A stretch of 64,000 nt of DNA from a virus (Duplodnaviria; Caudoviricetes). Shown here one piece after another: positions 23,131 to 64,000 of the stretch; the first letter of the stretch is position 1, and the number at the start of each line of letters is the position of its first letter. Made by a program: the position numbers and the translations under genes. A model generated the notes under the pieces. The model was not told the DNA's origin and searched no databases. It worked only from the letters and a program-made list of their open reading frames with translations. Location: IMG/VR virus record IMGVR_UViG_3300042988_001200; one strand, 5' to 3'.

Positions 23131-25178
23131 AGGGATAATAAATCTTCTGGATAGAAACAACTAGATAAACTTAGATTAACCCCATATAGTTCATCACATA
23201 AAGGGATTAGTAATATAGAACCTGGCTTATGAATAGTATTAGTTATTTCATTTATTACTATTTTAATATTAAAACTATTAAGCACCCTTATGATTTCTGG
23301 ATTGTTTATTTCTAATATGCAATATAAGAGTTGAGACATTACAGCTATCTCTATTATGAAATTTCTATTATTAGCCTCATGGTTAGAAGTAATTATCTTA
23401 ATGAAATCCACTTTAGATATATTTATAGAATTATTTATATTAGTAAAATCTTCTATATCTATATCTTGGTTATTTATAAACTCATCTATATGCTCATATA
23501 TAGATATAAGGGATAAAAGCCCTTCACAGATAGACTCTAACTCTTTGTATGAGTCTATATAGAGATTCTGTGTAGCTCTAGTTAAAGCTACATATATTAG
23601 ATTTAGCTCCTGAATATGGTCATTATATTTATTAGTTGGTCTAAATAGAATATCTGCTGAAGGAACTATATACCAGACATTCTTTGCTTCTGCTCCTTTA
23701 GCTCTATGGATAGAACTAAGAATAATAGCATTCTTACTTGGTTTACATAATTCCTCTACATATTTCTCTATATAGGAGACATCTATGTTCTCTTTTATGT
23801 ATAAATATATATACTCTATTAAACTATTACAACAATTAAAGTAGTCTATTAAAGTATCTAAACTAATAGTAAATAGTTCTTTAGAACTTGTATTATTCTG
23901 TTTTATACAATCGTGATTATACTTATAGAAACCACTTAATAAGTTCTTATACTCATTTAAAGAGTACGTTTTATAGTCTTGTAACTTGTTATACTCTAAA
24001 GCTAGTCTAAAGAATCTACTAATAGAGATACTTAAATCTGTACATCTTATATATATCTTCTTACCTTTTGATAATAGTTCTAAGCCATATTCTACTAATG
24101 GATAGTTATATCTACTAACAATAAGGTCTTTACTCTTTACTTTATTAACTATAAATTCTTTATTAAAGCCTTTTACTACACTCCCTTGTTTAGGGTTAGC
24201 GGGTAGCATTTCTATCTTAACTAGTTCTTTAACTAGTTCTATATGACTATCTGGACATCTATAACAATATGAAAGGGGGAGTTGAATAGTATTAAAGCTC
24301 TCTTTCATAATCTTCCAAATAGAAGGTTCAGCTCCTGCAAATGCAAATATAGACTGGTTATAGTCTCCTAATAATATGATTTGACTACCATTATTAGTAA
24401 ATTTCTTATATATCTCTAACATTAATAGAGAGGAATCCTGAGCTTCATCTACTATTAGATAGTCTGTGTGAGTTGGTTCTAGGTTTAAATCAATAGAAAG
24501 TTCTAGTAATTGAGTGAAGTCTAGGATTTTATTATTAGCTTGAGTCCTTCTTAATTGACTAATATATCTAATACATTTACATATAAATTTAATATAAGGA
24601 TTTATATATTCTAACTTTAAGCCATATTTATATATAACAAAGTAGATGTTTTCATAGGTTATAGTTAATCTATTTATTCTTAGATAGTTATCTATTTGTT
24701 TAGTTGCTTGTTTAAATATATTAATATGAACATTAATATCCTTTCTTTCTTGTTTAGTTATATTAGAAGAAGGGTCTATTCTTTCCTTTGTATATATATA
24801 ACTATAAAGTTCTTGATTTAAAGATTCATCTTTAAGGAAGGAATTAACGAACTCTGAAGTCCTATCTTGAATATCTATATCACCTAATACCCTTTTTAAT
24901 AACCCATAACATAGACTATGGATAGTATTTATCCTTACATTATTTAATCCTTTAATCCTTGTATCCTCTTTTAACTGTTCAGCTATATGTTTATTAAAAG
25001 CTAGAATCTGTATCTTTTTACCGCCTAAAGCTCCACATAGACCTATGATTTGAGTAGTTTTACCTACTCCTGCATTAGCATTGACTTGAATATTATTGGT
25101 TAAAGCCTCTTGAAATATAGTTAATTGATGACTATTCCAATTAATAGCAGTTAGATAATTAGAAGTCCAATTATTCAT
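23121..25178 (-). CDS. UvrD/Rep-like superfamily 1 helicase with C-terminal extension
   Basis: NAGVGKTT, LAFN, IVDEAQD, GDYNQSIFAF, SIHRAKGAE, YVALTRA. Confidence 0.88.
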   Translation of the reverse strand: MNNWTSNYLTAINWNSHQLTIFQEALTNNIQVNANAGVGKTTQIIGLCGALGGKKIQILAFNKHIAEQLKEDTRIKGLNNVRINTIHSLCYGLLKRVLGDIDIQDRTSEFVNSFLKDESLNQELYSYIYTKERIDPSSNITKQERKDINVHINIFKQATKQIDNYLRINRLTITYENIYFVIYKYGLKLEYINPYIKFICKCIRYISQLRRTQANNKILDFTQLLELSIDLNLEPTHTDYLIVDEAQDSSLLMLEIYKKFTNNGSQIILLGDYNQSIFAFAGAEPSIWKIMKESFNTIQLPLSYCYRCPDSHIELVKELVKIEMLPANPKQGSVVKGFNKEFIVNKVKSKDLIVSRYNYPLVEYGLELLSKGKKIYIRCTDLSISISRFFRLALEYNKLQDYKTYSLNEYKNLLSGFYKYNHDCIKQNNTSSKELFTISLDTLIDYFNCCNSLIEYIYLYIKENIDVSYIEKYVEELCKPSKNAIILSSIHRAKGAEAKNVWYIVPSADILFRPTNKYNDHIQELNLIYVALTRATQNLYIDSYKELESICEGLLSLISIYEHIDEFINNQDIDIEDFTNINNSINISKVDFIKIITSNHEANNRNFIIEIAVMSQLLYCILEINNPEIIRVLNSFNIKIVINEITNTIHKPGSILLIPLCDELYGVNLSLSSCFYPEDLLSLCL

Positions 25179-49729: not shown

Positions 49730-49939
49730 CTATGAGAAATACTCATTATATAAATCTAAAAGAGCTTGTGGATTATATAAGTCTTGTCTAATATACCATT
49801 CATATGGAGACTTAGGATTAAATACTACTCCCTGAGCTCCTAGTAACTCACTCATACTCTGTCTCTCCTCTATAGTTTTAGATTGCTGTCGAAGAGTAAT
49901 TAGACTATCTACAATGGTTCTTAAATCAAATTGACTCAT
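49730..49939 (-). CDS. Hypothetical protein
   Basis: 69-aa ORF. Confidence 0.5.
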   Translation of the reverse strand: MSQFDLRTIVDSLITLRQQSKTIEERQSMSELLGAQGVVFNPKSPYEWYIRQDLYNPQALLDLYNEYFS

Positions 49940-50799
49940 TATCTTTTTAATAAATAAACGTATTTATCAGGGTTTTCTTCTTCTGGATTATATAGATATA
50001 TATCATTATCTATATAGATACTGTCAGTGGATTTGTATTTTAAGCTCTGAATATTTCTCCTTATTAACTCTTTATAATACTCTAATGCTAAACTATCATC
50101 ATTAATCTGGTCTATTTCTATATCTTTAAATATATACTTAACTCTTGAATCTAGATGTTTAAACCTAGTTATACATATAAGAGTTTCCTGTTTACTTATA
50201 TATTCGATTATAGATAGGACTTCTCTCTTATAATTACCCTTTCCTTCATATATAGAGACTAACCCAATGGGTCTTATCTTTAAGACTTCATTATAATTTA
50301 AATCCCCCTTTATTAATGTTTTATATAAACTTATATAATAAGCAGAGTTAATTATAGATAAAATACTGGGAAATATAGATAAGTTCCAATACTTATTTAT
50401 AATAATTAACTCATTACCTTTATATTTATACTCTATATACTCATCTTTAATAGGAGTAACAAAGTATTTAGGTATTATAAATACATTCTTTTCTATAGAT
50501 ATATATCTATAAAAGGGTTCTTTAATAGGATAGAAATTGTATTTATCTGTATATAAAACCTTATCTTTATAAGAGGCAATCCACTTAAGATTAAGGATAT
50601 CTATATAGTTAATATAATTATCTAAACTACTAACCTCTTTATAATCCTTTATACCCTTCCTATTTTCTTGTACTTTCTCATCTATAAAATGTAAGTATCT
50701 ACAACCTAAAGGGTCTAGTTCTAATCTATTATCTATGAAGTAATGGGTCTCATTCTCTACTTTAATTACATATAAGGAGGTGCTTCCTAGCTTATTCAT
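49939..50799 (-). CDS. NPEE-motif paralog family member
   Basis: C-terminal LYNPEEENPDKYVY. Confidence 0.7.
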   Translation of the reverse strand: MNKLGSTSLYVIKVENETHYFIDNRLELDPLGCRYLHFIDEKVQENRKGIKDYKEVSSLDNYINYIDILNLKWIASYKDKVLYTDKYNFYPIKEPFYRYISIEKNVFIIPKYFVTPIKDEYIEYKYKGNELIIINKYWNLSIFPSILSIINSAYYISLYKTLIKGDLNYNEVLKIRPIGLVSIYEGKGNYKREVLSIIEYISKQETLICITRFKHLDSRVKYIFKDIEIDQINDDSLALEYYKELIRRNIQSLKYKSTDSIYIDNDIYLYNPEEENPDKYVYLLKR

Positions 50800-50824
50800 A
50801 TATCTAATTAGTCATTAATCTAGT

Positions 50825-50848
50825 AGGGAGAGATGATTATCTCTCCCT
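50825..50848. terminator. Hairpin downstream of ileS
   Basis: AGGGAGAGAT-GATT-ATCTCTCCCT. Confidence 0.65.
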
Positions 50849-50856
50849 TAATGCTA

Positions 50857-53415
50857 TTAAGTCTCTAATTGTTTACATCTAGAACAGAGTTTAGTAGATT
50901 GATTATTAACAATAGTCTCATATAAATCCACCTTATTCCAACATCTAGGACATTTATTCTTCTCGCTTAAGGAGATTGAAAGTTCATTAATAGAGATAGA
51001 AAATAACAATTCACTTACTCCTAGATAGCAACTGATAAGTTCTTTAGAGAGGTTATCTAGAGATAAAGTCTGTACTAAATCAATAGGGAACTCTACCTTT
51101 AAATCTAGTTTAGACTTAGCCTCTTTATTAGTTTTATACCTTTCAAAGGTAAGATTCACTTCATCTCTAGTGGGGTTAAGAGTATTAAAATCATAGACTT
51201 GTTCTAGAAGATTAAATTCTACAGGGTTCTCTAGAAGGTTAGAGTCTAGATAAATACTAGTTTCATTTACTAGACTAGGACAAATGGGTTCTAATACTTT
51301 AATAAAACCCTGGAGTAAATAGAAAAGAACATATTGACATCCTACCCTTTCATTACTATTAATGCCATCAATATATAATCTATCCTTAGAAAGATTACTA
51401 TAAGAAGACATAATCCTCTTTAATTCTTGTATTGAATTGATAACTAAATGAAAGTTATAGTAGTTATACTCCTCATTACAGGACTTTAATTCTTCATTAA
51501 ACTGTTGAATAATGAAGTTATCTAGAGGAGTATAGAAACTAGAAGGATAATTAGAAGGTTTAAAGTCTTTAATATTACCCAGAATGAATTTAATAATGTT
51601 CCTAAAGTCATTATATAGAGACACCATTTGAGTTTCTACTGTCTCTGATAAGATAATATCTTTAGTGAAGTCTTGGTTTAGAACTAGTAATCTTAAGATA
51701 TCAGAGGAATAAGTCTTTAATAAATCTAGGGGATTAGTAACATTACCCTTAGATTTACTCATCTTATTACCCCTTTCATCTAGAGTAAATCCATGTACTA
51801 GTAGTTTAGAGAAGGGAATCTGTTCCTTTAGTGCATAGGTGATAATTAAAGATGATTGGAACCATCCTCTATATTGGTCTACTCCTTCAATAAAGATAGT
51901 TTCTAATGGAATAGATTCCTCTTTAGTTTGATATAAATAGACACATCCACTGTCAAACCATACATCTAAGACATCCTCTCCCTTATGACAATGGGGAATA
52001 TTAGTAAACTCTTCTACTGGTAAATCCCACCATAGGTCCATATAATCCTCTACTAAGTCTTTATACTCATTAATCTTAGATAGAAAACTATCAATAACCA
52101 TATGGACTTTACCCTTACTATCAATGACATAAGGAATGGGAATACCCCACTTCCTTTGTCTAGAAATACACCATTCCTCTCTAGAAGAGATAGTGTTGGA
52201 TAGAGCTTTCTTAGCTTGTAAAGGATGAAACTCTACATTCTCTAACTCTTTAATTACAGATTCCTTAATTGAATTGATATCTAAGAACCATTGAGCTGTG
52301 GGTCTAATGTATACAGGATTCTCGGTTCTCTCATCAAAGAAGGTTTTAATTACTTGTTTAGAACAATGCAAAATAGAATCATTATTAAGGATAATAAACT
52401 CTGATAATTCCTCTGGAGTATATTTAAAGTCTTCATATTCAATATAACCCCCTGTTTTATGGAATAAATCCTTTACTTCTAGACCATTAACTAAGCCTAA
52501 ATTATAATCATCAAACCCATGAGAGGGGTTAATATGAACAATACTTGTACCTACAGAGTCTGTAACTAGACTATTAGCCTCAATAACCTTACAAATATCT
52601 CCATTTAAATTAGTATAAGTATGGTATTTAGATAATAGTTCTGACCCCTTAACCTTCTCTAAAAGAATAGAATCCCCAAATAAATTATTAAATTCCTCAT
52701 AGAATTTAATATTAGAGATGTAATGAAGGTTCCCTCTAGAGTAAATATAATACTCAATCTCAGAGTTAATAGCTAGAGCTTTATTTCCTAATAAAGTCCA
52801 AGGAGTAGTAGTCCAAGCAATATAATAGATATTATCATTGGCTGTACTATTAACTTTGAACTTTACATATGCAGTATTAACTTCTACTTCCTTATAGATA
52901 ATCTCTGACTCAGCTAGTGCTGTCCTATTCTTAATACTCCAATAAGTAGGCTTATTACCTCTGTAGATTAATTCTTTATTGTATAACTCTTGGAGAATAC
53001 TTAGTTCATATAACTGGAACTCATTATCTAAAGTTCTATAAGTATTACTATAGTTAATCCCTAGTTTAGTTAAGGATTCCTTATGCTGCTCTACAGTTTT
53101 TAAAGCTAGTTGTCTACAGTTATTTCTAGTCTCTAAAGGATTAGCACTCCTCTTTACCTTTAACTCAATGGGTAATCCATGACAATCCCATCCAGCAATA
53201 AACTCTTTATATAAACTGTCCTGACCATTCCTTCTATTAATTACATCCTTAATAGTTTTATTAAGAAGATGACCCATATGAAGATTACCATTAGCATATG
53301 GGGGTCCATCAATGATTAATACAGACCCCTTTTTATTAGATTGGATAGAAGGGTTAAAATCATGCCCTTTATAATAACTAGGAAACTGAGTTTCTGGTTT
53401 TAGAATATTAAACAT
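50857..53415 (-). CDS. ileS: Isoleucyl-tRNA synthetase (type 1)
   Basis: DGPPYANG.LHMGH, GWDCHGLPIE, WTTTPWTL, WCISRQRKWG, DVWFDSG, EGVDQYRGWFQSS, KMSKS, C-terminal CPRCW...CSRC. Confidence 0.96.
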   Translation of the reverse strand: MFNILKPETQFPSYYKGHDFNPSIQSNKKGSVLIIDGPPYANGNLHMGHLLNKTIKDVINRRNGQDSLYKEFIAGWDCHGLPIELKVKRSANPLETRNNCRQLALKTVEQHKESLTKLGINYSNTYRTLDNEFQLYELSILQELYNKELIYRGNKPTYWSIKNRTALAESEIIYKEVEVNTAYVKFKVNSTANDNIYYIAWTTTPWTLLGNKALAINSEIEYYIYSRGNLHYISNIKFYEEFNNLFGDSILLEKVKGSELLSKYHTYTNLNGDICKVIEANSLVTDSVGTSIVHINPSHGFDDYNLGLVNGLEVKDLFHKTGGYIEYEDFKYTPEELSEFIILNNDSILHCSKQVIKTFFDERTENPVYIRPTAQWFLDINSIKESVIKELENVEFHPLQAKKALSNTISSREEWCISRQRKWGIPIPYVIDSKGKVHMVIDSFLSKINEYKDLVEDYMDLWWDLPVEEFTNIPHCHKGEDVLDVWFDSGCVYLYQTKEESIPLETIFIEGVDQYRGWFQSSLIITYALKEQIPFSKLLVHGFTLDERGNKMSKSKGNVTNPLDLLKTYSSDILRLLVLNQDFTKDIILSETVETQMVSLYNDFRNIIKFILGNIKDFKPSNYPSSFYTPLDNFIIQQFNEELKSCNEEYNYYNFHLVINSIQELKRIMSSYSNLSKDRLYIDGINSNERVGCQYVLFYLLQGFIKVLEPICPSLVNETSIYLDSNLLENPVEFNLLEQVYDFNTLNPTRDEVNLTFERYKTNKEAKSKLDLKVEFPIDLVQTLSLDNLSKELISCYLGVSELLFSISINELSISLSEKNKCPRCWNKVDLYETIVNNQSTKLCSRCKQLET

Positions 53416-53435
53416 CTATTTACCTCTAGATTAAT

Positions 53436-53930
53436 ATGCTTAACTCTCCCCCTCTTTATATACCCTATAAGGATATAATCATAGTCCAAAGAGAGGATTA
53501 TTACATTAATAGTTCTCCAGTTCTCCGTTTATTTAATAAAACATATGCCTCCTGGATTAAAACTAAGGACTACTCTTCCTATATAGAAGCTCTATCTTCT
53601 CTTATAGGTATAACTTCTTTATCTATACCCTCTAGTGAAGGACTCTGGATTCATCCTTGTCTATTTACTAAACTAGCTAAATGGCTATCACCCGCCTTTG
53701 AAGTGTTTATAGAGACTTCTATCCTATATCCCTTTAATAACATTAACTCTGTATATACTCTTAACTCTATATCCCAAGTAAACATCCTTATGGATTCCCT
53801 TAATGAAGATATAAGATTAAGTGTAAAGGATAAGGTTAGATATAAGTTAAAAGCTATAGAAAAGGTCTATCCTCATCTAACTAGAGCTATAGAATATCTA
53901 GAAAAGGAGTTTAGCTCTAATCTAACCTAA
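53436..53930 (+). CDS. KilA-N domain DNA-binding protein
   Basis: YINSS...F.K...W...GLWIHP.L...LAKWLSP.F. Confidence 0.85.
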   Translation: MLNSPPLYIPYKDIIIVQREDYYINSSPVLRLFNKTYASWIKTKDYSSYIEALSSLIGITSLSIPSSEGLWIHPCLFTKLAKWLSPAFEVFIETSILYPFNNINSVYTLNSISQVNILMDSLNEDIRLSVKDKVRYKLKAIEKVYPHLTRAIEYLEKEFSSNLT

Positions 53931-54484
53931 CTCCTTTTATAAATATAAACCATATCATATACACCACCCCATGTAGGTATAGATAATTCCTTATATAAGG
54001 ACCATTCTTTCTCTAGTAACTTAAAGAGGTTGTCCTCTCCTGTACAACCTCCGTTAGACTCTCCTATATAAATAAGAGTATCTCCTTTATAGTTCTTTAA
54101 AGAGTTATATGCCATTAGATTGTCATAAGGAGGCCAACATAGAAATAAAGTTCTATCATAATGCTGGGTTAATACTTCTTCCTCCCCTATATGAACCTCA
54201 TACCACTTACACTGGGATTGACTATTATAGTGAGGAGCTTTATCATAAGCAATGATATCCCCACCCATCTGGTCTATAAGATAACTCCAATAGCCTCCTC
54301 CAGCCCCCATTTCTACTAGAGGACTATATTCTAGTAATTCCTGAATAACCTCTTCTGTAGGTATAGCCCAGGAGTAAGAGAGAACGTATTCCTGTCTTTT
54401 ATTAAAGGACATGAAGCTATTAGTTATGGGAAATAACTTCTCTTCCTTTAATTTATCTAAGTATGGATTTAACAAATAATTCAC
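53927..54484 (-). CDS. Class I SAM-dependent methyltransferase-like protein
   Basis: SWAIP, LVEMGAGGGYW, IIAYD, LFLCWPP, YIGE. Confidence 0.7.
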   Translation of the reverse strand: MNYLLNPYLDKLKEEKLFPITNSFMSFNKRQEYVLSYSWAIPTEEVIQELLEYSPLVEMGAGGGYWSYLIDQMGGDIIAYDKAPHYNSQSQCKWYEVHIGEEEVLTQHYDRTLFLCWPPYDNLMAYNSLKNYKGDTLIYIGESNGGCTGEDNLFKLLEKEWSLYKELSIPTWGGVYDMVYIYKRS

Positions 54485-55581
54485 TCCTTATAAATATATC
54501 TAGTAGGGTCTTGCTCTTCTGGATTTATTAGAGTTAGGTTATCAATATACTTTATAGATTCTAAATCCTTATCAGCTCTTATATAATCAGGGTCTATACC
54601 ATTGATAAAGAAATCACCCTTCTCCTCTAGGAATATTCCTCTTTTATTAGGTTTAATCCATTCATAAATAGCAAAGTCTTTATAAATACTGGCTATTAGA
54701 GGTTTCATTGTAAAGACCATAAAAGTATTACTATCTTTACAATCCTCTCTAAGTCTGTTTCCTTTTATAGAATCTGTATAATTACCATATAATTTCTTTT
54801 TTAACTCCAATAGATAATAATTACTATCTAATCTTTGTAAGACTTTTACTTTACATATAGGATAGAAATTAAATAGATTGATAAATTCTTTATCTACTAA
54901 CTCTACTAGCTCTAATTTAATAATATAAAAAGAGGAGAATAAGTCCTTTACATCTACATATCTATAAAACACTTTATTTTCATTAATGTAATCTAAGCCT
55001 TCTAGAGAGGGTGATTTAATATAGAAACTTAAGGATAGATTCTTATTAACCTTAACAAATAACTTTATTTTCTTTATAGGTACTTCTAGAGAATGATTAT
55101 AAGCAGTCTTATTAGGTATATACTCTTTTATTACTATAGGTTCTTCTATTGTTTCATCACAATAATAAAGGTCCTCTTTTCTTCTAAGACTTTTAAAGAC
55201 ACCTTCTATCCCATAAAATATTGTTTTAAAGACTTCTTCTTCTATATCTTTAAAGAATCCTATGATACTACAGGATTTAAGAAAGGGAAACTTATTTCTA
55301 TAATACTCAACCCTTTCATTATAAATACCCTTATCCATATCATCCTCAATCTCTACAAAAGAATAAGGATTAAAAGTTCTTATTGCATAACAATCTTCTT
55401 CTATCTCTATACTTTCATTATTACTAAAACAAAAGAGGACTATCTCCTCTTTATAAACTAACTTATATACCTTTACTTTTAATATAGGTAAACTTGTCAT
55501 TTCTTTATAGAATAAATAATGAGTAAGGTTTTGTAAGTAATTATCTACAGAGGACTTTATTCTTCTTACTGCTTTACTCAT
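54481..55581 (-). CDS. NPEE-motif paralog family member
   Basis: LINPEEQDPTRYIY. Confidence 0.7.
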   Translation of the reverse strand: MSKAVRRIKSSVDNYLQNLTHYLFYKEMTSLPILKVKVYKLVYKEEIVLFCFSNNESIEIEEDCYAIRTFNPYSFVEIEDDMDKGIYNERVEYYRNKFPFLKSCSIIGFFKDIEEEVFKTIFYGIEGVFKSLRRKEDLYYCDETIEEPIVIKEYIPNKTAYNHSLEVPIKKIKLFVKVNKNLSLSFYIKSPSLEGLDYINENKVFYRYVDVKDLFSSFYIIKLELVELVDKEFINLFNFYPICKVKVLQRLDSNYYLLELKKKLYGNYTDSIKGNRLREDCKDSNTFMVFTMKPLIASIYKDFAIYEWIKPNKRGIFLEEKGDFFINGIDPDYIRADKDLESIKYIDNLTLINPEEQDPTRYIYKE

Positions 55582-55583
55582 AT

Positions 55584-55952
55584 TTAAATCCTATAATTCA
55601 TAACTTTATCTAATGAAATCCTATCTTTACTATTAGTAATACTAGTAAAATCTCCAATAATTAAATCAATAAACCACTACTATCTATTAGATTTAATAGC
55701 TCTTACTCTTCTCCATTCATCTACTTTTAGGAATTTATTAAGCTCTTCATAGAATAAATGAGCCTGGTTTAATAGTTCTCGGTCTGCTTTTTTAAGGGAA
55801 ACTTGCTGTTCTAATGTTAATAAACCCTTATTTTCATAGAGTAAATCCCTTACTTGAAGTAGATTAAAGTGTTCTACTCCACTCACTTCTGGATGATTAA
55901 TGCTAATAATATAGGTGTTAAGTAACTTATCTAAGTCTAATTTACTTCCCAT
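55584..55952 (-). pseudogene. Hypothetical gene interrupted by TAG TAG at 55677-55682; frame stays open 30 more codons
   Basis: ...KSNR*(TAG)*(TAG)WFIDLIIGD...YRI*; the extension fills the gap to 2 nt before the next ATG. Confidence 0.5.
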
Positions 55953-56997
55953 ATAAGTTTCTATTCTGATAATAATTTATATTTGGATACCTATAATGAT
56001 TAAAGAATTCCTCTCTATCTTTAATTCTATATATATAATTCTCTCTGTCTTCCTCTGGATTTATAATCTCGAACTGGTTAATATACTCTAATGGAATACA
56101 CTCTTTAGACTTTTCTGTGGATTTAGCTATTAGAACTAACTTATCTTCTTTAGTTAATAATTCTTCTTCCTTTCTATAATCATAGGAAGATAGGTAATCT
56201 GTACTAAGAAAAGAGGAGGTTTCATAGTTGTAATCCTCTTTATATCGTCTAAATAAGTCTATATACTGAGAGTTTGTAGATAAACAAAGGTCCTTTGCTT
56301 TTACTAATCCTTTGTCTTCATTGTAATAAGGATAGAAGATAACTACTTCTTTTTCTTTATATAACTTATTTCCTATATCTTTAAGAACTTTAAATCTACA
56401 TACAAACTCTAGTTTTAATAATTGAGAACCCTGGGAAGCTGAATCAATAGGTTCTATATATGAGTTATCTAAAAAGAAATTAGTATCAATATTAGAATAA
56501 ACCATACCTCTATCTGGGTAATGCAAATAGAGAAAAGAGTTATTTATTATATACTTAGCCCTAACTTTCTTTATAGGGAAAGAGAGTTTTCTACTCTTTA
56601 ACTTCTTTAAACCTACTTCTAGAATATTAATCCTATGGTCTATAGAATAGAATTTATTGTTTAAAAGACTCTCTAATCTATTGGAATATATAGGTTTATA
56701 ATTATCTATCTCTAATTTAGTAATATTAATACGGCATATAAGAATATATAACTCTGGACTAAACTCTTTGTTTAATTCTCCTAAGTCTAGATTAAGAGAG
56801 GATTTATATTCTAATTTCTGTATTTTAGATTCTAATAACTTAGTTAAACTCTTTAATAATTGTTCTAATAAAGCTAGATTATTAGTATCAATCTCTAAGT
56901 TATATCTCTTAACATAGAAATATAGATAACCCTTAAACTCTTTATAATAGACATTACCTTCTACATGTAAAGAAGTTAATACAATATTACTCATCAA
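55942..56997 (-). CDS. NPEE-motif paralog family member
   Basis: IINPEEDRENYIY. Confidence 0.7.
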   Translation of the reverse strand: MMSNIVLTSLHVEGNVYYKEFKGYLYFYVKRYNLEIDTNNLALLEQLLKSLTKLLESKIQKLEYKSSLNLDLGELNKEFSPELYILICRINITKLEIDNYKPIYSNRLESLLNNKFYSIDHRINILEVGLKKLKSRKLSFPIKKVRAKYIINNSFLYLHYPDRGMVYSNIDTNFFLDNSYIEPIDSASQGSQLLKLEFVCRFKVLKDIGNKLYKEKEVVIFYPYYNEDKGLVKAKDLCLSTNSQYIDLFRRYKEDYNYETSSFLSTDYLSSYDYRKEEELLTKEDKLVLIAKSTEKSKECIPLEYINQFEIINPEEDRENYIYRIKDREEFFNHYRYPNINYYQNRNLYGK

Positions 56998-57940
56998 TAA
57001 TTCTTCTATATAAGTATTTACTCTTATCTGGCTCTTCTGGATTTACAATTACAAAGTTATTACTTTTAGAAATATGCTCATAGCCTAGAAAATAGTTGCT
57101 TTTATCGTAGGGATAACTATGGTTTATATAGTCTATAACCTCCCAATCTTTTAGTAGTAAAGACTGAGAACTATGAATTAAATAGTCTGTATCAAAGTCT
57201 TTATAGATTTCTTGTATAACTTTATGAGAAAATATAACCTTAGTCTTACTATTAGTAATGACTATTTCTCCTATTATTCTTTCCTTAAGACTGTAATTAT
57301 ATCTATTACTCTTTGAAGTTTCATATAATAGAGTATTACAAAAAGGTACAAACTTAAATATACTCTTTAAACCAGACTCCTTCTTTTTTATTAAATTAAT
57401 ATTACTACTATGCAATAAATCTATTAGATTCTCATGGGATTTATCTTCTAATTTTATAAAAGGATAATCTAACCTAACTAACTTATTAACTAAATCCTCT
57501 TCTTTTACATATATAGATAAAGATTTATCTTTATTCTTAAAGATATAAAGATTTATATTACTTAGTTTCCTATCAGAATAAGTTATAATTCTAGCCTTTC
57601 CATTCTCTAGATTATGATTTTCATAGTCTATACCTATCTTATAATTAATACTATCTCTTGTATAAATTAAACTTTCATAGGTGTCTATAATAGTTTCACT
57701 TATTCTTTTAATGGTCTTAAAGCCTACTATATTAACATTTCCTAAATGATTTAATCTAGAACTATACTCTTCTTTATATCTATTAAATAGATTAATAGTA
57801 TTATCTTCTATAGTTTTGTAACCTTCCCATTTTGAATCCTTATCCTTTATATCTATATCTGGGTGTATAGGAGCAAAGTATACAAATAAATCATCAATTC
57901 TTATTACAACTATAGGAATACAATATTTAAATCCACTCAT
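56987..57940 (-). CDS. NPEE-motif paralog family member
   Basis: IVNPEEPDKSKYLY. Confidence 0.7.
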   Translation of the reverse strand: MSGFKYCIPIVVIRIDDLFVYFAPIHPDIDIKDKDSKWEGYKTIEDNTINLFNRYKEEYSSRLNHLGNVNIVGFKTIKRISETIIDTYESLIYTRDSINYKIGIDYENHNLENGKARIITYSDRKLSNINLYIFKNKDKSLSIYVKEEDLVNKLVRLDYPFIKLEDKSHENLIDLLHSSNINLIKKKESGLKSIFKFVPFCNTLLYETSKSNRYNYSLKERIIGEIVITNSKTKVIFSHKVIQEIYKDFDTDYLIHSSQSLLLKDWEVIDYINHSYPYDKSNYFLGYEHISKSNNFVIVNPEEPDKSKYLYRRIIDE

Positions 57941-58322
57941 GTTTAACTTTTTTCCATCGAAAGAATGTTACAACCTCACCCTCATCTATTGATAAAGATA
58001 CAGAGTTAAACTCCTGTTCCTCTATCTCTAAGTAGTAATCCCAGAAGATGTAATCCTTTAGTTGCTTAGTAGAAACAGAGGGTTTAGACTCATGGGAGTA
58101 ACCTAAATAGATTAATCTAGAGGGGTTAATTAATAGATTTAACTCCTCTTTTAACCCTCTAATAACTGCTTCTTCTGGAGTTTCATTATGTTCGATAGTC
58201 TCTGAGATGTTAGGAAACCTTCTATATCTGAACTTATTAGTGGACTTAACTAACTGTTTGGTTTGACAAAGAAGATTATCTTGGAACCTAACTTGAATTC
58301 TTACTACTTTATGAATGCTCAT
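57927..58322 (-). CDS. Nudix hydrolase-like protein
   Basis: SETIEHNETPEEAVIRGLKEELNL resembles a Nudix box. Confidence 0.6.
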   Translation of the reverse strand: MSIHKVVRIQVRFQDNLLCQTKQLVKSTNKFRYRRFPNISETIEHNETPEEAVIRGLKEELNLLINPSRLIYLGYSHESKPSVSTKQLKDYIFWDYYLEIEEQEFNSVSLSIDEGEVVTFFRWKKVKHEWI

Positions 58323-58819
58323 TTATAATTAACTTTATTCCTTTTATATAGATAATTATCCTTATCTTCCTCTGGATTAATAATCCTAAAACTATTTATG
58401 TTATCTATAAATATAAAGTCCCCATCTTTTATTACTGGATTTATAAAGACTTCTGAGTTTATTATCTCTTCTATTTCAAATTCTTTATATATATCTTTTA
58501 AATCATTAGAGGAAAACATAGCTTTATTCTTATTGCAATACTCCCCTCCTACATAAGAGATACCAATAAACTTCTCTATAACTTTATATAAATCATTAAA
58601 AGTTATAAAGACTAATATGTAATTACTTATATATTTATACTTAAAATATAGCTCTTGAAACTTATTAGAAAGATTATGAGTTCTATAGTGATTATCTCTA
58701 TCTGTAATCTCTAATACATCAATAGATAAACTTATATCCTTCCTCTTTAATTTAGTAAAGAGAATAATAATGTCATCTTTAATAACCTTATATACATCTA
58801 TATAGACTCTAGATAACAT
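58319..58819 (-). CDS. NPEE-motif paralog family member
   Basis: IINPEEDKDNYLY. Confidence 0.7.
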   Translation of the reverse strand: MLSRVYIDVYKVIKDDIIILFTKLKRKDISLSIDVLEITDRDNHYRTHNLSNKFQELYFKYKYISNYILVFITFNDLYKVIEKFIGISYVGGEYCNKNKAMFSSNDLKDIYKEFEIEEIINSEVFINPVIKDGDFIFIDNINSFRIINPEEDKDNYLYKRNKVNYK

Positions 58820-58846
58820 ATAATATATCTAGTTGAATGCTTCTAG

Positions 58847-59263
58847 TTGATTATGGAAAACATTGAACATAATACAGCACTAGCTATAACCCATCAACAG
58901 GGTTATGTCTATTTAATTAAGGCTCAGGGTTCTAACCCAAGTAGATTTAAGATAGGTAGAACTAATAATGTAGAGAGAAGGTTAAAGGAAATAGCTACAT
59001 GTGGCCCTTACCCATTGAAGATAGTAGACTATTTCCATACAAATAATTGTGTGTCTGCTGAGAAACAGTTACATGAAAAGATGGGTCAATATAGAGTATG
59101 GGGGGAGTGGTTTCTCCTTCCATACAAATATGAAATTAACTTAGATTGGTTCTTTATTGAACTTAAACCTAAGTTATATACCCTTAAATCTATGGATTTT
59201 ATTAATAAAGAGTGTACCTCTTATAAAGAATATGAGGCTTTAATTAATGAGTTACCCTTTTGA
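58847..59263 (+). CDS. GIY-YIG superfamily (T5orf172/MUG113-like) protein
   Basis: GYVYLI...FKIGRT..VERRL...EKQLH...R..GEWF. Confidence 0.85.
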   Translation: MIMENIEHNTALAITHQQGYVYLIKAQGSNPSRFKIGRTNNVERRLKEIATCGPYPLKIVDYFHTNNCVSAEKQLHEKMGQYRVWGEWFLLPYKYEINLDWFFIELKPKLYTLKSMDFINKECTSYKEYEALINELPF

Positions 59264-59266
59264 GGA

Positions 59267-59495
59267 TTATACTGAAGGATAAAACAATAAGGAAATAATT
59301 ATTCCACCCTCTTCTTTATTGGTTTCAATCTTATAATTATAACCTCTATACTCTATATTTAAAGGTAATTCATCCTCTGTAATATCTTCTTCATCTAAAT
59401 CTTTTTTTTGCCTCTTCTAAAGTTTCCTCGGCTACTTTATAATTAATTTCCTCTCTAATAAGATTTTCAATACTCTCTTTTGTTTGGGAATTCAT
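59267..59495 (-). pseudogene. Frameshifted small gene (A8 tract at 59402-59409)
   Basis: 34-aa frame joins a +1 frame DLDEED...IEYRGYNYKIE...YPSV* across GC-A8-GAT. Confidence 0.5.
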
Positions 59496-59713
59496 AAACC
59501 CTTCCTTTTGTTATATATATATAAGTGTTGAGGTACTCTATTTAACTCTATACAATTAACTAAGTATTCTTCTACAGCTTGTCTAAACTTATAATTAAAG
59601 TCCTCTATATTACTAGCTTGAAAAGTGTAATCCTCATTTAAAAGAGTAATATTACCTTCTATTCCATCTTCTTTATAGATTAAATTAACACTGTAACCTT
59701 TATATTTATACAT
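59492..59713 (-). CDS. HicB-like antitoxin domain protein (orphan)
   Basis: MYKYKGY...G...TFQA..IED...F..AVEEYL..C. Confidence 0.75.
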   Translation of the reverse strand: MYKYKGYSVNLIYKEDGIEGNITLLNEDYTFQASNIEDFNYKFRQAVEEYLVNCIELNRVPQHLYIYNKRKGL

Positions 59714-59715
59714 AA

Positions 59716-60549
59716 TTATTCTATCAATTTATATAAAAGGTCATCTGGATTTGACTCTTCTGAATTTATAATTAAGAGCTTAAGATTATTAGAGTTGTTA
59801 ACTAATAAATCAAACTGACTATAATCTACATTATTAAGACTAAATCCTAAGTCTAAGTTTGTTATTAATTCTATATTAATATCCTTACTTATTTCTCCCC
59901 AAGTCTGGATTAAATCTTCTTGAGGTTCTATTATATATACTAATCTTGCACTTATTTCTTTATCAATAGCTAATGCACAAAGATAATTCTTTAACTTATA
60001 TAAAGAATTGGATTCCTTCTTATAAACTTTTATAAACCCAGTGGGTATAATATAACCGCTAGTATAAGATTTATTATATAAAGAAAAGAAATTATTAGGT
60101 ATTGTTAAAGGATTAAATTTCTTTAACTGCTCTTCTAGATAACTTTTATATTCTTTATTCTCTAAATTTAAACTGAAAGAAAAGGTGTTAGGAACATTAT
60201 CTTGATAAAAAAGAGACTCTATTATAAAATAATTAATACCATTAGTAGAATATAATTCTATATTCTCTTTAAACAAAACTCTTATTTCATAACCTATATC
60301 TCTATCCTTTAGAGTTATATAAATCTTTACTTTATTATCTGAATAAGCTAGAAAGGGGTTATTGTATTTATAAATAGTTTCATATTTAACCTTTTTCTCT
60401 TCATTATCTTTTTTAATAACAATATGAAACTCTACTTTATCTTCATTATCTTTAACTTTATCTACTGATATAAACAAGTTAGGCTTATTTATTTGACGAC
60501 AAATGCTTATGTTTTTAATTATTAACTGCTTTTCTATCTCTATTTTCAT
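59716..60549 (-). CDS. NPEE-motif paralog family member
   Basis: IPTGFIKVY...LYK; IINSEESNPDDLLY. Confidence 0.7.
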   Translation of the reverse strand: MKIEIEKQLIIKNISICRQINKPNLFISVDKVKDNEDKVEFHIVIKKDNEEKKVKYETIYKYNNPFLAYSDNKVKIYITLKDRDIGYEIRVLFKENIELYSTNGINYFIIESLFYQDNVPNTFSFSLNLENKEYKSYLEEQLKKFNPLTIPNNFFSLYNKSYTSGYIIPTGFIKVYKKESNSLYKLKNYLCALAIDKEISARLVYIIEPQEDLIQTWGEISKDINIELITNLDLGFSLNNVDYSQFDLLVNNSNNLKLLIINSEESNPDDLLYKLIE

Positions 60550-60613
60550 TGTTATATAAATTCATATAAGTAATTATCCTCCATAATTATTTATATTCCC
60601 ATATCTAATATTT

Positions 60614-61063
60614 TTAATCTACTAATACATATAAGTAATTATCTGGATTTGACTCTTCTGGATTTACCAGTTTAAATAAGAAGTCCTTATTACTTTTCCT
60701 TATTATCCATTTACCAGAGTAACTATTACTACAGGGATATTTATCATGTAAATGAACATTAATATTATCCCATAACGGGAAAGGGCTAGTAGTTAATACT
60801 AAGCCTATATCAATAAATAATTCTTCTTTATTTATTAATAGACAAGAATAATAGGTCTTTTCTTTATATAAGTTAGTTACTCTTTCATATATTTCTACAC
60901 AGCCTGTAGGAATTAATATTGGTTTCTTAATAATACTTAGAGGAAAACTATTTAATTCCTTTAACTCTTTACAGTCTTCTTTTAATCTTATTACAAAAGT
61001 TTTTTGATTTCCAAAAGAGAATTCATAAGTATAAAATATATCTTTATATTTAAAGTAATTCAT
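60614..61063 (-). CDS. NPEE-motif paralog (core domain only)
   Basis: IPTGCVEIYER..NLYK; LVNPEESNPDNYLY. Confidence 0.75.
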   Translation of the reverse strand: MNYFKYKDIFYTYEFSFGNQKTFVIRLKEDCKELKELNSFPLSIIKKPILIPTGCVEIYERVTNLYKEKTYYSCLLINKEELFIDIGLVLTTSPFPLWDNINVHLHDKYPCSNSYSGKWIIRKSNKDFLFKLVNPEESNPDNYLYVLVD

Positions 61064-61535
61064 CTATTAATACATATAAGTAATCATCTGGGTTTAATTC
61101 CTCTGGATTTACCAGTTTAAACAAATAGCAACTATCACTTTTTCTTATTATCTTTTTATCAAAATAAGTTTTATTACAGGGATATTTATCTTGTAAATTA
61201 ATATTAAGACCTTCCCATGAAGGGAAGTTATGTGTTTCCTTATTAATTAGGATTAAACTTATATATATAAAAGGTAGAAAGAAGTCAAAGTCCTGTGGAA
61301 TTATTAGTAAACAAGAATAATAAGTTCTCTCTTTATATAAGTTATCTGTCACTCTTTCATATACTTTTATTACTCCTGTAGGAATAAATAAATCCTTACT
61401 AATCTCAAAGGGGATATTATCTATTAAGTTATAAAACTCTGTATAGTCTTCTTTTAGTTTTATAACTTCATATTCTTTAATTTCTATATCCTTGTGATAT
61501 ATACAATCAATATCCTTATATTTAAAATAGTTCAT
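61050..61535 (-). CDS. NPEE-motif paralog (recent tandem duplicate of 60614-61063)
   Basis: Same MNYFKYKDI start; LVNPEELNPDDYLY. Confidence 0.75.
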   Translation of the reverse strand: MNYFKYKDIDCIYHKDIEIKEYEVIKLKEDYTEFYNLIDNIPFEISKDLFIPTGVIKVYERVTDNLYKERTYYSCLLIIPQDFDFFLPFIYISLILINKETHNFPSWEGLNINLQDKYPCNKTYFDKKIIRKSDSCYLFKLVNPEELNPDDYLYVLIDELL

Positions 61536-62339
61536 TTACTTAGAGATTAAATCATAGATATAATTCTCAGGTTTACACTCTTATGGATTAAGAATCTTAA
61601 CTTTATATAAAAAAGGTGCAATATTAGTTGGTATAATCTCATTACTATAAGGAATTAAAGGTTTATTAAGATAAGTTTTATAGGATTCATATATATCCTC
61701 TAGATATATCTGTACTCCTATCTCTTCAAATAAGGCTAGGTCATTAGTATTAGTTATTGGAGTTAAACTAAGTTTACATCCATATTTCTCATATAGTGAT
61801 TCTCTAATTCTAATATAAAAACTACTTATAACTAATAAATACTTATGTATTTTATAGTAACTTCCATGATTTACAAAATATTCCATTACACCATTAGGGA
61901 TTAAACAGTTATTTTTATTGTCTCCTAATGGAAAATTAATAATGCCATCTAATAAATAACCTTCATAAGATTCAATTCTACAAAGAGAATACTTAGGGGG
62001 GAAAGTAAAATGTTTAATACTATTTTTATTTTCTTCTAAGATTAAATCTCTATTATATATAATAATTAGTGCTAATTTATCATCATGTAAATATCCTTTT
62101 ATAAAAATAAAGTCATTAGTAAATATATCTTTTATGTTTAATTTATATAGTTCTCTATTTAATTTATACTTTAAAAGGTCATTATTATTTCTTAATATCC
62201 TTAAATCTATATTATAGGTATAAGGATAGGAAACGGAAACTCTAGATTCTTTCTCTACATATAAATAGATATAAAGATTATGTAAATAAATCTCTCTCTT
62301 CTTATTAAGACCTATACTATCTTCAAATTGAACCCACAT
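61536..62339 (-). pseudogene. NPEE-motif paralog with premature TAA (61581-61583) inside the motif
   Basis: KILNP*(TAA)ECKPENYIYDLISK*; final stop abuts the next ATG. Confidence 0.7.
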
Positions 62340-62349
62340 TTAATTCTCC

Positions 62350-63231
62350 TTAAGAAGTAGTTGGAATGAAATATAAGTAATCATTAGGGTCTGATTCCTC
62401 TGGATTACTTATCTTGAAATCACATCTTTTATTTAATAAAGGGTTATAAATACAACGTTTAATAGTATCTAATACATAAGTAAACTCTGTATTATCTAGA
62501 CAGTTCATCCAATTATTAATAAGGTTTTCTTGTGGTTTTATTAGATAAATATGAGAAGTGAAGCATCTATTAGAGTGTTTAATAAACCTTTTTGCTTTTA
62601 AATATTGAGTTAGTTTATATAGATTATTACTTCCAATAACCTTTTCATATACATTAACTAACCCATTAGGAACTATAAAATGGTTATCATTAAATTCTGC
62701 ATGATGGCTATCATAGGGTACACTTATCAACTCTTTGTTAAAACTACTACAATCCTCTTTCATTTCAAAGAGATAACTATTAACTAAATCAATAAAATCT
62801 TTAGAGTGAAAGTAATATATAAACCCCTCTTCTACTGGAACTTTATGCAGAAAGAGGTTTACTTTATACTCTATTACAGCATAAAGGGTATCACTATCTA
62901 CTAGTCTCTCTATAAAGATATTTACTTTATCTTCTGAATAAACACAGAGTTTAGACCCCGGTTTCACAAGGATTTCATCTATATTAGATAAACCTAGTGT
63001 ATATTTAAAGTGTTTATATTTAGAAGTAAAGCCTACTGTATCTGTTTTTATAGTACCCTCTACTATAACTTCATTAGGTCTATATAAGAGTTGTATATCT
63101 ACAGTTAATTCTTTAGTTATAAGAAACATTTCCCATTTATATAAGGAATAAGTGGCTACATCTATAAGTTTAGCCCTAAGCGTACCTGTAATACTCTTAT
63201 CAACTTCTATTTCTATCATTGTCTTAACCAT
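62350..63231 (-). CDS. NPEE-motif paralog family member
   Basis: VPNGLVNVYEK...NLYK; ISNPEESDPNDYLY. Confidence 0.7.
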   Translation of the reverse strand: MVKTMIEIEVDKSITGTLRAKLIDVATYSLYKWEMFLITKELTVDIQLLYRPNEVIVEGTIKTDTVGFTSKYKHFKYTLGLSNIDEILVKPGSKLCVYSEDKVNIFIERLVDSDTLYAVIEYKVNLFLHKVPVEEGFIYYFHSKDFIDLVNSYLFEMKEDCSSFNKELISVPYDSHHAEFNDNHFIVPNGLVNVYEKVIGSNNLYKLTQYLKAKRFIKHSNRCFTSHIYLIKPQENLINNWMNCLDNTEFTYVLDTIKRCIYNPLLNKRCDFKISNPEESDPNDYLYFIPTTS

Positions 63232-63976: not shown

Positions 63977-64000
63977 TCATTATCTAGAGTGTCAATAAAA

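Follow-up and report, generated by a model that had tools for sequence, protein, structure and literature searches.

The subject of this study is a tandem array of genes on the minus strand of a 64,000-nucleotide stretch of phage DNA (hereafter the window; IMG/VR record IMGVR_UViG_3300042988_001200; Duplodnaviria, Caudoviricetes), whose products share a whole C-terminal domain closed by an N-P-E-E (NPEE) motif. The array holds at least 15 strongly diverged members, and its carrier is an AT-rich jumbo phage from freshwater. The protein family, and possibly its fold, is new to every library that we searched. We tentatively read these proteins as intracellular host-interaction factors.

The array and its members

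The preliminary description of the window listed ten open reading frames (ORFs) with a shared C-terminal motif, and this was borne out. The regular expression N[PS][E*]E.{2,7}[YL][VIL]Y, applied to the six frames of the window, gave ten matches, which are exactly the ten listed ORFs, all on the minus strand inside 49939-63231; in 200 triplet shuffles the mean was 0.095 matches and the maximum two. The motif family is therefore far above chance expectation. The positions and lengths given earlier for these ORFs (149 to 366 aa) agree with the ORF list, and the copy described as read through at 61581 does contain an in-frame TAA inside its motif. All-versus-all BLASTP of the members finds homology across 130-300 residues, with E values down to 1e-51 (p60614/p61050, 53% identity, E 2e-51; p59716/p62350, E 6e-18; p54481/p56987, E 3e-16). 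In the family hidden Markov model (HMM), nine window members and the five described below score between E 1e-22 and 1e-46. The interrupted copy, p61581, was left out when this model was built and reaches only E 0.14 with it; its membership comes from BLASTP (E 1.4e-10 to p60614). The members within the window are the following.

p49939: 49939..50799, minus strand, 286 aa; own N-terminal region of about 86 aa plus core; ends NPEEENPDKYVY + 4 aa; HMM E 1.7e-28
p54481: 54481..55581, minus strand, 366 aa; subfamily B; N-terminal region of about 200 aa plus core; ends NPEEQDPTRYIY + 2 aa; BLASTP E 3e-16 to p56987
p55942: 55942..56997, minus strand, 351 aa; subfamily B; NPEEDRENYIY followed by 28 residues; HMM E 2e-22
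p56987: 56987..57940, minus strand, 317 aa; subfamily B; ends NPEEPDKSKYLY + 6 aa; top profile match, E 2.7e-41
p58319: 58319..58819, minus strand, 166 aa; subfamily B, core only; ends NPEEDKDNYLY + 8 aa; HMM E 3.7e-34
p59716: 59716..60549, minus strand, 277 aa; subfamily A; all-beta N-domain (predicted) of about 105 aa plus core; motif variant NSEESNPDDLLY; HMM E 1.7e-46
p60614: 60614..61063, minus strand, 149 aa; core only; ends NPEESNPDNYLY + 4 aa; 53% identical to p61050
p61050: 61050..61535, minus strand, 161 aa; core only; 14-nt overlap with the start of p60614; ends NPEELNPDDYLY + 7 aa
p61581: 61536..62339, minus strand; subfamily A; TAA at 61581-61583 in the motif (NP*ECKPENYIY); 252 aa as written, 267 aa read through
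p62350: 62350..63231, minus strand, 293 aa; subfamily A; ends NPEESDPNDYLY + 6 aa; last member within the window

The array had been described as spanning 49939-63231. Ten members do lie there, but the array does not end at 63231: the metagenome contig L001, from a freshwater run, carries p62350, overlaps the window and runs past base 64000, where it encodes five further members (contig coordinates below). For the database record of p62350, only p62350 itself matches.

L001 465-1073, beyond base 64000: 202 aa; motif end NPEEPDSKEYLY, then 27 residues
L001 1657-2481, beyond base 64000: 274 aa; end NPEEPDPNSLLY
L001 2493-3305, beyond base 64000: 270 aa; end NPEEVNPKNYLY
L001 3302-4036, beyond base 64000: 244 aa; end NPEEEDPSKYLY
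L001 4036-4854, beyond base 64000: 272 aa; end NPEEPNPDNYCY

The total rises to at least 15 members, of which 14 are intact; together they comprise about 3,880 codons or about 11.6 kb of coding sequence, which is about 6% of the phage genome of about 204 kb. The array stops upstream, because contig L010 shows an RNase HII gene and two non-member genes (231 and 72 aa) upstream of the first member. A gene for isoleucyl-tRNA synthetase (IleRS) sits between p49939 and the remainder of the array.

The shared core domain and its N-terminal partners

The 149-aa and 161-aa members match the C-terminal 150 aa or so of the long members, and the common part is, judged from these alignments, a whole domain of about 150 aa that extends beyond the tail alone. 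Its first conserved block reads [IV]-P-x-G-x3-[VIL]-Y and then N-L-Y-K. The second is a Trp (or Phe/Tyr) about 35-50 residues downstream of the N-L-Y-K block, where the Trp lies in a helix. A conserved Ile-Pro or Ile position precedes the closing block, F-x-h-h-N-P-E-[ED]-x(2-6)-Y-h-Y, and the segments that separate the conserved blocks are rich in indels.

Two subfamilies can be distinguished. Subfamily A comprises p59716, p60614, p61050, p61581, p62350 and the five L001 members, subfamily B comprises p54481, p55942, p56987 and p58319, and p49939 is an outlier to both. The N-terminal regions are alignable inside each subfamily. In profile-profile comparison the N-domains of the two subfamilies do not resemble each other (probability 0.16%), so that kinship was rejected, and neither type resembles the core. 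Weak second HMM domains had raised the idea that the N-domain is an internal duplicate of the core, which was rejected by hhalign (probability 0.03%). The earlier picture of a constant module on variable N-termini thus stands as to a constant C-terminal domain, at least two unalignable N-domain types and core-only forms; on the other hand, the constant part is not a short tag. The isoelectric points of the members range from 4.7 to 8.3 with no strong charge bias, and on reading the member sequences no signal peptide or membrane segment was seen. The predicted complex of the adjacent paralogs p61050 and p60614 scored 0.01, compared with a mark of 0.32, which weighs neither for nor against their binding.

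Predicted structure and place of the motif

AlphaFold2 models were made for the core, from p60614 with a 14-row alignment, and for full-length p59716. The p60614 core model (mean predicted local distance difference test, pLDDT, 77; predicted template modelling score, pTM, 0.69) is mostly beta with one helix. A long beta-hairpin bears the P-x-G and N-L-Y-K residues, and the NPEE loop is placed between strands 129-132 and 145-148, with pLDDT values of 92-97 over the last 30 residues. The full-length p59716 model (pLDDT 74, pTM 0.69) has the same C-terminal layout, preceded by an N-domain that is an all-beta meander. The NPEE motif is thus predicted to be a strand-loop-strand element inside a folded domain and not a detachable tag.

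The motif had been described as lying at or near the C-terminus, with an injection or packaging tag among its possible roles. The position holds for most members, but p55942, the L001 465-1073 member and two members of a related phage carry 18-34 residues beyond the motif. The motif is not a free-carboxyl tail signal, because up to 34 residues can come after it, and both models place it in a high-confidence loop between two strands. It had also been allowed that the motif is merely the last strand of a known fold; in the models it looks more like the closing strands of a fold than like a free linear docking peptide, but this fold matches no known one.

Search for known families and folds

The preliminary description did not recognize the family, and our searches agree: no relative was found in Pfam, PHROGs, NCBIfam, the PDB or the AlphaFold DB. 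Pfam gave no family for any of the ten members at E<=1. The best PHROGs matches (E 0.0015-0.004) cover short stretches and point to differing families, none significant, and structural PHROGs gave a single weak 'virion structural protein' row (E 0.054). NCBIfam returned only sub-threshold noise, and a profile search of PDB sequences gave nothing significant. No Pfam match was obtained to F-box or PRANC (in the models, beta-strands make up most of the C-terminal module, next to one or two helices), to MecA (PF05389), whose chains are also absent from the PDB fold and sequence matches, or to SUKH/Imm families; the array neighbours IleRS, KilA-N, NUDIX and T5orf172 include no toxins. No relevant account of the family or the motif was found in the literature.

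At the level of structure, the core model had no match by Foldseek against the PDB, AlphaFold DB clusters and the ESM atlas or by exhaustive VIA-align (best Z 2.9); the stated background of the fold tool for models without a true match is Z 7-8. With full-length p59716 the best row was domain I of class II fusion proteins (Z 7.3), at or below background and confined to the N-domain. Other rows for this N-domain, likewise below background, were small baseplate proteins from the phages XM1, Pa193 and Pam3 (Z 4.7-5.6 across some 80 residues) and Pur-alpha repeats (Z about 5). The rows for the p59716 model in BFVD, the PDB, the AlphaFold DB and the atlas were insignificant, the best in BFVD being a cyanophage baseplate wedge protein (E 4.5e-3, template modelling (TM) score 0.16), and the ESM atlas entry for p59716, a poor model (pLDDT 0.38), offered no usable feature match. 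The hot-dog-fold, PCNA, class II fusion domain I, Pur-alpha and WapI rows were all rejected as background. On these models, no known fold is recognizable for the family.

Distribution in other phages

A profile HMM of the ten C-terminal regions, a search already suggested in the preliminary description, was run against protein sets and found members only in the window phage and two related metagenomic phage lineages. The ten-core profile has 14 matches at E <= 1e-3 among 1.84 billion representative proteins: eight from the window, four from L001 and two from elsewhere. One of the latter, P0010 (311 aa), was located on three contigs from a related phage, where KilA-N followed by an 851-aa IleRS shows synteny with the window; the other, P0013 (168 aa), belongs to a more distant phage and lies beside a gene for cysteinyl-tRNA synthetase (CysRS). 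An HMM scan of the loci of these relatives revealed further, more diverged members with the variant ...I-N-P-E-D-L-x-N-x-x-Y. The close relative, whose contig was followed 10 kb further, has at least nine members, including h-h-[YM]-P-E-D variants and the two, mentioned above, with 18-34 residues after the motif; they are interspersed with genes for a Dam methylase, a Panacea-like protein, an RNA ligase, RNase HII, a HEAT-repeat protein, T5orf172, NUDIX and a metallophosphatase. Members of the other lineages score E 1e-5 to 1e-12 with an HMM built from the window phage alone, and relative members left out of the wider HMM score E 7e-10 to 5e-16.

No additional lineage emerged from two more profile searches. 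In IMG/VR, a search for relatives seeded with p61050 and one seeded with KilA-N found none, and a degenerate DNA pattern of the motif gave two matches, neither at a locus that holds a member by HMM (one, L008, is an unrelated capsid/portal locus). The motif pattern gave ten single matches in 185,579 GTDB species genomes, about the number expected by chance, with no member by HMM. A metagenome scan seeded with the T5orf172 gene of the array returned only distant T5orf172 loci (34-42% identity) that lack family members. Window DNA itself was found in freshwater, freshwater-sediment and subsurface metagenome runs from three studies. Across the collections searched, the family is clade-restricted and multi-copy in a small clade of freshwater phages.

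It should also be noted that a class I aminoacyl-tRNA synthetase is encoded near the family genes in each of the three lineages: IleRS in the window (50857-53415) and in the close relative (L002 11510-14065), 64% identical, and CysRS in the distant phage (L005 6181-7524). The related phage also encodes a Dam-type methyltransferase (MethyltransfD12), a protein with a weak SocA/Panacea antitoxin domain and a HEAT_PBS-type HEAT-repeat protein (L030 5746-6501 and 8530-9036, L002 4309-4962). The Dam-type methyltransferase and the SocA/Panacea protein are typical of anti-defence regions, and the HEAT_PBS-type protein hints at a phycobilisome-bearing (cyanobacterial) host.

Divergence, expansion and the interrupted copy

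Between the window phage and its relative, the syntenic neighbours of the array are well conserved (identity 64% for IleRS, 64% for KilA-N, 61% for T5orf172, 50% for a 73-aa protein and 48% for NUDIX), compared with 23-30% for the best family pairs, the exception being one 52-residue local match of 40%. In sequence identity, the family thus diverges two to three times faster than its neighbours. In a maximum-likelihood tree, seven subfamily-A members of the window phage form a clade (support 96/92), a nine-row subfamily-A clade is also recovered (83/66), and p60614 pairs with p61050 as its sister (99/98); terminal branches have a median of 1.75 substitutions per site. As both subfamily-A clades exclude all members from the relatives, the tree indicates tandem duplication within the lineage of the window phage and rapid divergence thereafter.

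Four metagenome runs, represented by short low-depth contigs, were examined, and about 36 differences from the window were listed. The TAA of p61581 is also present in a contig of a second study (freshwater sediment; run X3, record 15), which covers 61426-61730 with no differences. Because the same TAA occurs in an independent study, it is a circulating allele and not an assembly error. Among the strain differences in run X4, the intact members show five synonymous and four nonsynonymous changes, and p61581 one synonymous and four nonsynonymous. From so small a sample, these counts do no more than hint that the intact copies are constrained and that p61581 is decaying; it is probably a recently inactivated copy. 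If it is decaying, the last 15 or so residues would therefore be required for function.

Genomic context

The window also encodes ribonucleotide reductase, ThyX, a UvrD-type helicase, an SNF2/DEAD-type helicase, an exonuclease, a sigma factor and a ClpC-like double-AAA protein, and IleRS, KilA-N, NUDIX and T5orf172 are encoded within the array itself. The array lies in a non-structural part of the genome. The members and most of their neighbours run in the same direction on the minus strand, and the stop codon of one gene often overlaps the start codon of the next. A scan of the window for sigma-70-type promoters gave fewer matches than the shuffle expectation and so carries no information. 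Two further genes are listed here.

ClpC-like protein: 20872-23160, minus strand, 762 aa, TTG start; both AAA modules, weak Clp_N match
ORF: 53927-54484, minus strand, 185 aa, GTG start; between KilA-N and p54481

The ClpC-like protein has ...ASLGFE... at the site expected for the ClpP-docking loop of IGF/LGF type, and on this basis may couple to the ClpP protease. In the 185-aa ORF, a glycine-rich EMGAGGGYWS recalls motif I of S-adenosylmethionine binding; the ORF has no Pfam match and, by BLASTP, no counterpart in the 15.8-kb locus L002 of the relative.

Two intergenic stretches also stand out. Run X4 shows roughly 36 differences from the window, and nine of them cluster in a 67-nt stretch (59424-59490), a hypervariable spot between T5orf172 (58847-59263, plus strand), a domain of mobile-element type, and the gene for the 73-aa protein (59492-59713). 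Between the first and second L001 members lies a gap of 580 nt (L001 1074-1656), unusually long for this genome, in which the sole ORF (L001 1461-1643) encodes 60 aa with two hydrophobic segments.

Possible functions of the family

The reading that we favour, which is plausible but still short of probable, is that these are intracellular host-interaction proteins, which would inhibit, decoy or bind variable factors of the host, defence proteins for instance. Viral host-range arrays and arrays of immunity proteins are the analogy behind it. The common domain would contribute an activity or scaffold that all copies share, differences in the N-domains and in the loops rich in indels would direct each copy to its own target, and the array would diversify in an arms race with the host. 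Several points weigh against this proposal. The fast divergence is also compatible with relaxed constraint, and the polymorphism sample amounts to about 14 sites in low-depth contigs. The argument from the neighbourhood of the array is weak. Confidence in the AlphaFold2 models is medium (mean pLDDT 77 and 74), they were built on shallow 14-row alignments, and the high confidence at the motif may merely mirror its conservation. Finally, no RNA run with sequence of this phage was found, and the family is known only from a few metagenomic contigs.

Different explanations can be offered for the same array. The proteins could be associated with the virion, as decoration, baseplate-accessory or ejected internal proteins, with the C-domain as the module for incorporation into the particle. 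The weak likeness of the p59716 N-domain to the baseplate proteins of XM1, Pa193 and Pam3 and the baseplate wedge protein at the top of the BFVD rows point this way, as does the precedent of phiKZ-like jumbo phages, which have paralog families of head-internal proteins. Yet those Z scores are under the background of the tool, the TM score of the wedge protein is only 0.16, the core domain is without any fold match and the genes sit among those of nucleotide metabolism, RNA repair and translation, so that we regard a place in the virion as unlikely. We give slightly less credence to a core that is an enzyme or a nucleic-acid-binding module, with the Glu pair and the aromatics as its site and the copies acting on different substrates. 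The near-invariant P, G, Y, Y-K, W, N-P-E-E and Y do include an acidic pair, RNA and nucleotide enzymes are encoded nearby (NUDIX, RNase HII, RNA ligase), and Pur-alpha-type structural rows (a beta-beta-beta-beta-alpha repeat) appear weakly at Z of about 5. However, relatives have Asp in place of the second Glu, Tyr or Met can replace the preceding Asn, the rest of the domain has no conserved constellation of His, Asp, Lys or Arg, the net charge is near neutral and no enzyme fold was matched; moreover, fifteen diverged copies of one enzyme per phage would be unusual.

An equally slim chance attaches to the docking idea of the preliminary description, taken here as a conserved C-terminal module that docks the paralogs on one phage machine, either the ClpC-like unfoldase (20872-23160) or an E1/E2/Ubl/JAB cassette, while the N-domains deliver host proteins for unfolding, degradation or conjugation. 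A constant C-domain with at least two N-domain types and core-only forms fits this architecture, MecA is formally alike in layout (its N-domain binds the substrate and its C-domain binds ClpC), and the same genome encodes a ClpC-like protein with two AAA modules, an N-domain and LGF at the position of the ClpP loop. Nevertheless, neither sequence nor fold resembles any adaptor, MecA, F-box and PRANC included, some 30 kb separate the array from the ClpC gene, the core-only members would lack a substrate domain, and what ties the family to ClpC or to E1/E2/Ubl/JAB is the shared genome only. In its most specific form, this model becomes a bank of adaptors whose C-domain plugs into the ClpC-like unfoldase (with host ClpP) or into E1/E2/Ubl/JAB and whose N-domains and loops capture host defence proteins. 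We hold this form to be a little less probable again; if it were true, it would amount to a programmable and evolvable destruction or tagging of host immunity factors, a phage counterpart of the poxvirus F-box/PRANC arrays. Least probable of all, in our view, is that the array is mostly non-functional duplicated DNA, selfish or neutral, perhaps spread by T5orf172 and KilA-N elements and now decaying. The extreme divergence, the nonsense codon in one copy and the genes with domains of mobile-element type inside the array would be expected on that account, but 14 of the 15 frames have stayed intact through more than one substitution per site, the same blocks are conserved in three phage lineages, the genes are tightly packed with overlapping neighbours and the intact copies have an excess of synonymous differences relative to p61581.

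Comparison with known systems and significance

The Ankyrin-PRANC/F-box and BTB-Kelch arrays of poxviruses and giant viruses consist of many diverged paralogs with a constant C-terminal module and variable N-parts, turn over fast and are lineage-specific. The phage array is likewise lineage-specific, quick to turn over and made of diverged paralogs with a constant C-module and variable N-parts. It differs in having no F-box, PRANC, ankyrin or BTB Pfam signature and in the bacterial host of the virus. In addition, the constant part of F-box/PRANC proteins is a helical box of about 40 aa, whereas that of the phage family is a 150-aa domain modelled as mixed alpha/beta; we know of no Skp1/cullin-type partner in bacteria. 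SUKH/Imm immunity arrays, which also occur in phages, are built of tandem diverged single-domain paralogs of about 150 aa, intracellular and without an enzymatic signature, each thought to neutralize a different target. The phage family is also a heterogeneous tandem array that includes single-domain paralogs of about 150 aa, but it has no SUKH/Imm Pfam match and no adjacent toxin genes, and the sole related row, a WapI-containing ESM cluster, is not significant (TM 0.21 for the model and 0.41 for the cluster representative).

MecA/YpbH resembles the phage proteins in joining a variable N-domain to a constant C-domain of about 120-150 aa, and the genome that carries the phage family also codes for a ClpC-like ATPase. 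MecA is, however, single-copy, compared with an array of 15 members, and the family has no MecA match in Pfam or among PDB structures. The inner-body/head paralogs of phiKZ-like phages are also multi-copy, diverged, without other relatives and clustered in a jumbo phage genome. Those paralogs are encoded alongside structural genes, and the prohead protease processes their products, whereas the present family lies in a non-structural block, has no structural PHROG match and carries a C-terminal motif that is predicted to be folded.

Diverged paralog arrays in large viral genomes are already well known, and the scale of this one is unusual for a phage. Arrays of a similar kind in eukaryotic viruses have repeatedly proved to be host-range or immune-evasion factors. 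Even if its function were mundane, the family would serve as a clean marker of this uncultured clade of phages and would suit structural genomics well as a target. If it is the bacterial-virus equivalent of those arrays, built on a new domain, it would bring a new fold, new host-targeting proteins and possibly new defence targets in cyanobacteria.

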